14,062 nt of DNA from assembly GCF_003334385.1 (NCBI RefSeq), contig NZ_QOWN01000066.1; one strand, written 5' to 3'. The position numbers and the translations under genes were made by a program. Positions within the stretch are counted from its first letter, which is position 1; each line of letters begins with the position of its first letter. Of the stretch, positions 9,361 to 9,716 are shown in pieces. Under the pieces are notes generated by a model. It did no database searches. It was not told the DNA's origin and worked only from the letters and a program-made list of their open reading frames with translations. The DNA comes from Escherichia coli. GTDB taxonomy: Bacteria; Pseudomonadota; Gammaproteobacteria; Enterobacterales; Enterobacteriaceae.

Positions 9361-9450
9361 AAAAAGTGAAATTTCTTCACTTTTTCACACTTATTTTTCG
9401 CGCTGATTTGGTGATTATGGTGATAAAATAAAGTGAAGTTTTTTCACTTT
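9361..9450 (+). promoter_or_regulatory. Two operator-like palindromes flanking the promoter region of the HTH gene
   Basis: AAAAGTGAA-N5-TTCACTTTT at 9361-9383 and AAAGTGAA-N6-TTCACTTT at 9429-9450, about 67 bp apart, in an AT-rich stretch just upstream of the ATG at 9465. Confidence 0.45.
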
Positions 9451-9464
9451 TTCAAAGGTATTTT

Positions 9465-9716
9465 ATGACCGGCTGGGAACTGCGAATCTGGCGAAAAAGC
9501 ATGCTCTGGTCACGCGAAAAAGCGGCCAGAGAATTTGGCGTGACGCAGAGAACATGGCACGCCTGGGAAAATGCGGAACAGGTGGACGTCACCGTCTGGA
9601 GGACCACCCAGGCTCTTTCAGTCCGTGACCTGCTGCCTCACATGCAGGGGATGCGTAAGGCAGATATCATCAGGCGTCTGGAAAATGAACTGGGGGAAAC
9701 GGCAGAGGATGTGTGA
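9465..9716 (+). CDS. Small helix-turn-helix transcriptional regulator (XRE/Cro-like), 83 aa
   Basis: Segment WSREKAAREFGVTQRTWHAWEN matches an HTH pattern. Palindromic operator candidates lie directly upstream. Confidence 0.6.
   Translation: MTGWELRIWRKSMLWSREKAAREFGVTQRTWHAWENAEQVDVTVWRTTQALSVRDLLPHMQGMRKADIIRRLENELGETAEDV

Follow-up and report, generated by a model that had tools for sequence, protein, structure and literature searches.

The 83-aa protein YgeA is probably a small dimeric XRE-family autorepressor that acts on two palindromes at its own promoter, and its gene is one that can be transcribed only from double-stranded DNA. The binding, repression, and timing that we infer are as follows. 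A YgeA dimer would bind two AAGTG-N9-CACTT palindromes before its own gene, here called O1 (distal) and O2 (proximal). O2 is predicted to lie over the -10/+1 region of a weak promoter of the extended -10 type, and because of this overlap bound YgeA would exclude RNA polymerase. O1 may be an auxiliary site that serves cooperative repression, or activation at low YgeA levels. On the incoming single strand ygeA would be silent, and it would fire once the segment has been copied; a brief unrepressed burst would then give way to a low, self-limited level, as in negative feedback with overshoot. The regulon on the plasmid is apparently ygeA alone, and the further candidates for an output are interference with the Rpn operon, a roadblock by the ssDNA promoter, and targets in the host or in mobile elements.

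YgeA is an ordinary kind of regulator, and its family has very likely already been catalogued in a published leading-region table. Among the major vehicles of ESBL genes are the IncI-complex plasmids, and work on their leading regions is active. ygeA occurs in about 2000 sequenced plasmids, is strongly constrained, and belongs to the few leading-region families that are barred from single-strand promoters. With itself as its sole target, YgeA would be just a further example of negative feedback. Other targets, if it has any, would mean that a protein acts on top of a shut-off now regarded as purely structural. The predicted operators would give a direct handle on YgeA function.

The window and the neighbourhood of ygeA

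The window, which is the whole stretch of 14,062 nucleotides of Escherichia coli DNA that was analysed, covers the oriT/nikAB end of an IncI-complex plasmid. About 2000 plasmids from E. coli, Salmonella, and Shigella match the region around ygeA at 96-98% identity, and one match (NZ_CP145695, locus L001) was typed as IncI-gamma/K1, MOBP, and MPF_I. The features are collected in Table 1. The oriT inverted repeat is ~1.9 kb from ygeA, and psiA, psiB, and ssb are located past ardA. As the preliminary description had it, ygeA is on the + strand and convergent with the Rpn block. DUF4942, Rpn, and ardA are all on the opposite strand.

Table 1. Features of the window around ygeA
Feature	Position	Strand	Remarks
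nikB	4328-7039	-	annotation in window coordinates
nikA	7051-7470	-	annotation in window coordinates
oriT inverted repeat	~7539-7557		
Small 'MobC'/YggA gene	7610-7951	+	
DUF4942 gene	8037-8888	-	
Putative class-1 ssi/Frpo-like ssDNA-promoter repeat, oriT-proximal copy	8971-9261	+	would serve DUF4942; ends ~100 nt left of O1
O1 (distal putative operator), AAAAAGTGAA-ATTTC-TTCACTTTTT	9361-9385	.	perfect 10-N5-10 palindrome, arms 9361-9370 / 9376-9385; core AAGTGAAATTTCTTCACTT at 9364-9382
Inferred extended -10, TGATAAAAT	9421-9429	+	from hexamer scan; TAAAAT 9424-9429, TG 9421-9422
O2 (proximal putative operator), AAAGTGAA-GTTTT-TTCACTTT	9428-9452	.	core AAGTGAAGTTTTTTCACTT at 9431-9449; overlaps predicted transcription start
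Ribosome-binding site (RBS) AAAGG	9454-9458	+	6 nt 5' of ATG; read from sequence; kept in L016
ygeA (R64 nomenclature; pESBL Hp21)	9465-9716	+	83-aa XRE-type HTH protein
Hairpin AGCCTGGC-TGAAT-GCCAGGCT	9728-9748	.	12 nt past ygeA stop
69-aa ORF (Rpn-tail)	9747-9956	-	
Rpn	9979-10950	-	
ardA	~12473-12973	-	two small genes between Rpn and ardA

The 69-aa ORF is a free-standing copy of the C-terminal tail of Rpn. Its protein aligns with Rpn residues 263-321 at 54% identity (E 4e-16), the two genes share a DNA repeat (9768-9877 / 9991-10100) that is 75% identical, and the ORF has its own copy of a terminator-like hairpin (9728-9748 vs 9947-9967). It could be what is left of a second rpn gene, or else a small tail protein in its own right. 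The hairpin past the ygeA stop, a divergent duplicate of the terminator hairpin of Rpn, has a T-run on neither strand, and a promoter/terminator scan of 8800-10100 found no intrinsic terminator after ygeA on the + strand. RefSeq annotates a 65-aa hypothetical protein at 9234-9431 (+) that overlaps the ssDNA-promoter repeat, O1, and the ygeA promoter; it has no family match, its sequence is missing in the pESI-like locus L016, and it is probably not a gene. Within a ygaA-like CDS upstream of ardA, not in an intergenic region, there is an inverted repeat (13622-13653 / 13828-13859) whose 32-nt arms are 91% complementary and 174 nt apart. A search of the entire window against Rfam gave zero matches.

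YgeA is an XRE-type protein under purifying selection

The protein is named YgeA in databases after the R64 naming scheme. What conjugation papers call 'YgeA' on the F plasmid is another protein, named in the F scheme, and was not taken as evidence on the R64-type YgeA. The earlier assignment of the gene to an 83-aa HTH protein was borne out: the window protein matches the Pfam families HTH_31 (E 1.2e-4) and HTH_3 (E 0.022), and these two families are matched at E <=1e-3 by 26 and 24, respectively, of the 37 family members. An AF2 model built with 37 homologs has a pLDDT of 90.1 and five predicted helices at residues 3-12, 17-24, 28-35 (the recognition helix), 42-60, and 65-76, in an XRE fold. 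The top Foldseek matches of the model are all XRE regulators. Both the profile-HMM match and the compact multi-helix fold, with its helix 2-turn-helix 3, place YgeA in the XRE (Cro/C1-type) family. PADLOC and NCBIfam gave nothing over noise, and the NCBIfam antitoxin models were far under their cut-offs.

ygeA is a real gene under strong purifying selection. Compared with an 86%-identical homolog on a pESI-like Salmonella megaplasmid (L016), dN is 0.083 and dS is 1.28 (saturated), resulting in a dN/dS of 0.064. The family is small, with 79 cluster representatives at E <=1e-3 among 1.84 billion proteins. By tblastn, homologs were found in about 3700 plasmids, some 2000 of them at >=95% identity (the IncI complex) and some 1700 at <60%. 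In the TnSeq study of pESBL, Hp21 (68116-68367, -) was scored as 1.00 for non-essential, 0.00 for maintenance, and 0.00 for transfer (PMC4288162). That Hp21 can be lost is not what one would expect of an antitoxin, or of a protein that keeps a lethal gene repressed. In the literature searched, no functional study of the R64-type YgeA was found.

Putative operators and promoter

The preliminary description had reported two AAGTGAA-N5/6-TTCACTT palindromes flanking the likely promoter of the gene. Both palindromes are there and exact, and the spacer is N5 in each. They lie within a 42-nt direct repeat (9356-9397 / 9423-9464) that is 83% identical. When the window was simulated 300 times under a Markov-1 model, two 7-N5-7 palindromes with a common arm never occurred. 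The flanking geometry is also correct, around a promoter that is itself a prediction. A generic sigma-70/terminator scan of 8800-10100 called no promoter, and hexamer matching and conservation were therefore used instead. The TAAAAT at 9424-9429 is the only plausible -10 between the palindromes, and the window and all relatives have only a poor -35. By consensus, then, the ygeA promoter is predicted to be weak, and given the conserved -10 the start would fall at ~9435-9437, within the left half of O2. The 19-21-bp palindromes conserved at the promoter would fit binding by the predicted dimer.

Three other arrangements were considered and rejected. For a divergent sigma-70 promoter under the operators that would drive DUF4942, there was one poor candidate in the window, with a 19-nt spacer, and none that is conserved. 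The double-stranded form of the ssi hairpin has no consensus match that would make it a rightward promoter for ygeA. An RNA hairpin at O2 in the style of Aca2 is at odds with a predicted start within O2, and the O2 RNA folds no better than shuffled sequences (z 0.45).

The putative operators are conserved where the surroundings are not

Homologs were inspected at loci from Enterobacter (L003), Salmonella (L004), Serratia (L011), Citrobacter (L012), Hafnia (L015), and a metagenomic contig (L140), which share 33-57% protein identity with YgeA. The operator comparison also took in L013, L016, L139, and a Klebsiella phage (L138); across L003, L004, L011, L012, L013, L015, and L016 the protein identity ranges from 33 to 86%. 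At the inspected loci the homolog is located 2-2.5 kb (4 kb in Serratia) from nikA/mobA and the relaxase. A small gene on the + strand and between one and four genes on the - strand precede it, and psiA/psiB/ssb are on the other strand. Taken over eight diverged plasmids with 39-57% protein identity, the distance to nikA/oriT is again ~2-2.5 kb. This opposite-strand synteny by the MOBP relaxase/NikA is kept in at least seven diverged plasmids, and ygeA is a solo, monocistronic gene in the window and at least eight syntenic loci.

An O2-like AAGTG-N9-CACTT site starts 33-36 nt 5' of the ATG in all eight loci, and 43 nt in the fragment L139; the O2-type site is also present in L140 and before the homolog of the Klebsiella phage. 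The left arm of O2 directly follows a TAAAAT, TAGAAT, or TATAAA in the window, L003, L004, L011, L012, L013, and L016. In seven of the eight loci compared, the palindrome recurs 56-67 bp 5' of O2 (spacings of 56, 56, 57, 64, 67, 67, and 67 bp; 67 bp in the window). A constant helical phasing of O1 and O2, hinted at by the pair of 67 and 57 bp, was ruled out by the further loci with 56, 56, and 64 bp. A clear O1 is missing in two relatives, L011 and L140, and the role of O1 is uncertain because of this and of the variable spacing.

The inner bases of the half-site vary by lineage as GAA, GCA, GTA, or GTC. In the Enterobacter locus the GAA of the window is changed to GCA on both arms of both operators. 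When the window is compared with L016, O1, the -10, O2, and the RBS stand out as conserved islands, while the 35 nt between the operators have diverged. A transposase takes the place of the DNA left of O1 in L016 and O1-O2-ygeA is retained, so that these elements appear to form a self-contained module with its boundary at O1. Because position, core, and two-copy layout are kept while the surrounding sequence has diverged, the two palindromes are very probably the operators of YgeA, as had been suggested before. Such a conservation pattern across relatives is the trace expected of an autoregulated repressor.

Genome contigs were also searched for a pair of AAGTG-N9-CACTT sites 30-60 nt apart. 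Among the matches listed, there were CRISPR-like and unrelated repeats, and one Hafnia locus from a genus that also has a ygeA homolog.

Strand logic and putative ssDNA promoters

The leading genes (ardA, psiA/B, ssb) are on the - strand and the transferred strand is their template, which makes the + strand the transferred one. From oriT this strand reads rightward in the 5' to 3' direction, and the sense strand of ygeA is the transferred strand. Transcription of ygeA therefore needs complementary-strand synthesis first, and on this point the preliminary description was right. The identical strand logic was applied by Samuel et al. (PMC11541004).

GC-rich dispersed repeats of ~290-460 nt occur in this part of the plasmid. 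In the window, blocks of 8971-9261 are 76-95% identical to 11840-12128, and the complete IncI plasmid pTF2 (L005) has three copies (26-351, 6371-6696, and 9189-9649), located upstream of ssb, a 144-aa gene, and DUF4942. The transferred strand at 8889-9464 is predicted to fold with a dG of -131.7 kcal/mol (z = -8.3 vs shuffles). These repeats fit class-1 ssi/Frpo-like ssDNA promoters, three of which have been described in ColIb-P9 and pESBL (PMC12672017). The copy by ygeA would make DUF4942 an early gene. ygeA is located between this oriT-proximal ssDNA promoter, which points leftward to DUF4942, and the 3' end of the next hairpin-driven operon. Since each - strand operon has a hairpin promoter at its upstream end, ygeA adjoins an ssDNA promoter, and the adjacency does not by itself show coupling.

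In the published leading-region catalogue (Supplementary Table 1, 2024), family 22 is an HTH family of 2333 members with a median position of 2 and strand -1. It is labelled 'HTH regulator; aca6' and is accompanied by RpnE at position 3 and RpnB at position 4. Judged from size, position, and neighbours, this opposite-strand HTH family is very likely that of YgeA; ygeA and family 22 share both closeness to oriT and an orientation against the transferred strand.

Search for targets beyond ygeA

The preliminary description had gone on to propose a late switch that shuts off the early leading-region genes. In such a model YgeA, expressed from double-stranded DNA, would repress the early leading operons after establishment, in the manner of ArdK/ArdR of IncN/IncW plasmids. 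In its favour, ygeA can be expressed only after complementary-strand synthesis, lies ~100 nt from the oriT-proximal ssDNA-promoter repeat, and keeps its position and orientation across diverged plasmids. The operator scan speaks against it. On complete pTF2 (93,112 bp), the only sites with <=2 mismatches were the two at the own promoter and one intragenic site with 1 mismatch, and none was found near the ssb, psiB, ardA, klcA, methylase, or nikA promoters. With <=4 mismatches allowed, 49 sites were observed vs 38.9 in simulations, which puts the matches with 3-4 mismatches at chance level. No leftward sigma-70 promoter overlapping the operators is conserved. The divergent neighbour is variously DUF4942, DUF5983, DUF932, or DUF1419, and because both the divergent and the convergent neighbours vary between plasmids there is no conserved target gene. 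Hp21 was dispensable for both transfer and maintenance in the TnSeq study (PMC4288162). The shut-off of leading genes is moreover explained by the loss of the hairpin promoters upon conversion: the pESBL transcriptome attributed it to the loss of ssDNA promoter hairpins, without a repressor (PMC12672017), and a 2026 preprint on F attributed it to the single- to double-strand conversion itself (10.64898/2026.01.09.698686). We thus consider the late switch very improbable, and a broader role of YgeA in regulating leading genes is unsupported.

The intragenic site on pTF2 (18705-18723, AAGTGAAGTTGATTCACTA) would be expected ~0.015-0.05 times by chance. It is within the CDS of a CPBP-family endopeptidase, in an accessory ABC-transporter/HlyD module between nikB and trbC that the window does not have.

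A different output could be the transcription of ygeA itself. The autoregulated promoter would fire into the convergent leading operon (the 69-aa Rpn-tail ORF and Rpn), and after conversion to double strand, collision or antisense RNA would damp residual expression in the manner of an excludon. YgeA on its operators might, in addition, block read-through in the direction of the ssDNA promoter and oriT. Between the stop codon of ygeA and that of its convergent partner there are only ~20-80 bp, or the two genes overlap (~30 bp in the window, 19 in Enterobacter, and 38 in the metagenomic contig; overlapping in Citrobacter and the phage), and no intrinsic terminator comes after ygeA on the + strand. 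Transcriptional interference or antisense effects after conversion would thereby be possible. The convergent layout is also kept although the partner changes among Rpn, N6-methylase, DUF957, and psiA. A weak, self-repressed promoter is however a poor source of interference, and the tight convergence may merely reflect compact plasmid DNA. On balance we think it unlikely that transcription, rather than the protein, is the main output of ygeA.

Autorepression, the preferred account, is probably missing a target or a second function, because it is hard to see what selection would gain from a protein that controls only itself, and some 2000 plasmids keep the gene under strong constraint. A further reading, to which we give a small chance, is that YgeA and its operators serve as a conserved sensor of the double-stranded state in NikB-type (IncI-like) plasmids, with the unrepressed burst or off-plasmid targets timing a step of establishment. 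ygeA would then be the first oriT-proximal gene that fires only after complementary-strand synthesis, and the off-plasmid targets would be in the host or in rival mobile elements that have an AAGTG-N9-CACTT site. A step of this kind would be invisible to laboratory TnSeq in isogenic E. coli.

Comparison with known regulators

The best solved relatives of YgeA are autorepressors, Aca2 first and then HipB and HigA2. In both sequence and fold, the N-terminal XRE HTH of Aca2 (PDB 7ezy, 7vjo-q, 7b5j, 8w35) is the best solved match; Foldseek places Aca2 at ranks 1-2 and HigA2 and HipB next. The sequence match has an E of 8e-4 with the single sequence and of 1.8e-6 with the family profile, and is limited to residues 1-52. 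Aca2 is an autorepressor that acts through two inverted repeats around its own promoter. The two proteins differ beyond the HTH, as the 83-aa YgeA lacks the C-terminal dimerisation domain of Aca2 (~60 aa) and is modelled with only two further helices there. The Pfam family Aca2_YdiL (PF08965) is matched by none of the 37 members at E <=1e-3 and by two at <=0.1. Aca2 is the last gene of an acr operon whereas ygeA is a solo gene, and the RNA-hairpin mode of Aca2 is unlikely for YgeA with a start predicted within O2.

These likenesses raise the alternative of an Aca-type (anti-defence-associated) regulator, or an XRE antitoxin, with an adjacent partner gene. It draws on the Aca2 proteins as the best solved relatives, on the published 'aca6' label of a family that is very likely YgeA's, and on distant homologs (31-35% identity, from pOXA-48, a phage-plasmid-like replicon, and a Yersinia plasmid) that are second after a same-strand ORF of 126-153 aa. 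The syntenic relatives tell otherwise. In all of them, as in the window, the gene is monocistronic and there is no conserved neighbour; the upstream 65-aa ORF described above is a poor partner; the Aca2_YdiL matches and the Aca2 C-terminal domain are missing; and loss is tolerated in TnSeq (PMC4288162). We regard a partnered YgeA as very unlikely, and autorepression by a solo gene as the better description.

XRE antitoxins of type II systems offer a similar comparison. Both HipB and HigA2 are autorepressors, as predicted for YgeA, and resemble it in fold and in operator geometry. The HipB operator is TATCC-N8-GGATA, to be set beside AAGTG-N9-CACTT. Unlike them, YgeA has no adjacent toxin and is dispensable (PMC4288162). 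For a type II XRE antitoxin such as HipB, HigA, or MqsA, a conserved neighbour and a deleterious loss were looked for, and neither was found.

Among plasmid repressors, ArdK/ArdR (IncN pKM101, IncW R388) and those of the KorA type are encoded in or near the leading region and act after entry. Their operators are at ard and other target promoters, whereas the YgeA operators on pTF2 are at its own promoter only; operators at several establishment promoters were not found on that plasmid.

Controller (C) proteins of restriction-modification systems, e.g. C.Esp1396I, have two palindromic operators and a delayed, self-limited expression upon entry into a new host. Like YgeA they are XRE HTH proteins of ~80 aa. 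Their C-boxes are two adjacent palindromes in ~35 bp that are bound as a tetramer, unlike the YgeA operators, whose centres are 56-67 bp apart. The fold match is weak (Foldseek rank 48), and the window has no same-strand downstream gene and no restriction gene. Only the distant homolog of pOXA-48 has a downstream gene annotated as a restriction endonuclease.

Two distant homologs deserve a separate description. Klebsiella phage SopranoGao (L138, 2903-3219) has a homolog with 44% identity, a solo gene that lies in opposite orientation between the large and small terminase genes. Its upstream region reads GTGAAGATATTGCAC - TATAAT - GTGCATTTATTTCAC, with two GTG-N9-CAC sites that bracket the TATAAT, and this layout (embedded, opposite strand, two operators) is that of the plasmids. 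In IncL pOXA-48 (L002, 6440-7830), a 31.6%-identical homolog is the second gene of a same-strand operon, after one for a 153-aa protein whose N-terminus looks like a signal peptide, and it overlaps at its end with the annotated restriction endonuclease gene. The operon promoter has a different palindrome, AAAATGTTCA-AATA-TGAACATTTT, and the layout resembles that of a controller protein and its nuclease.
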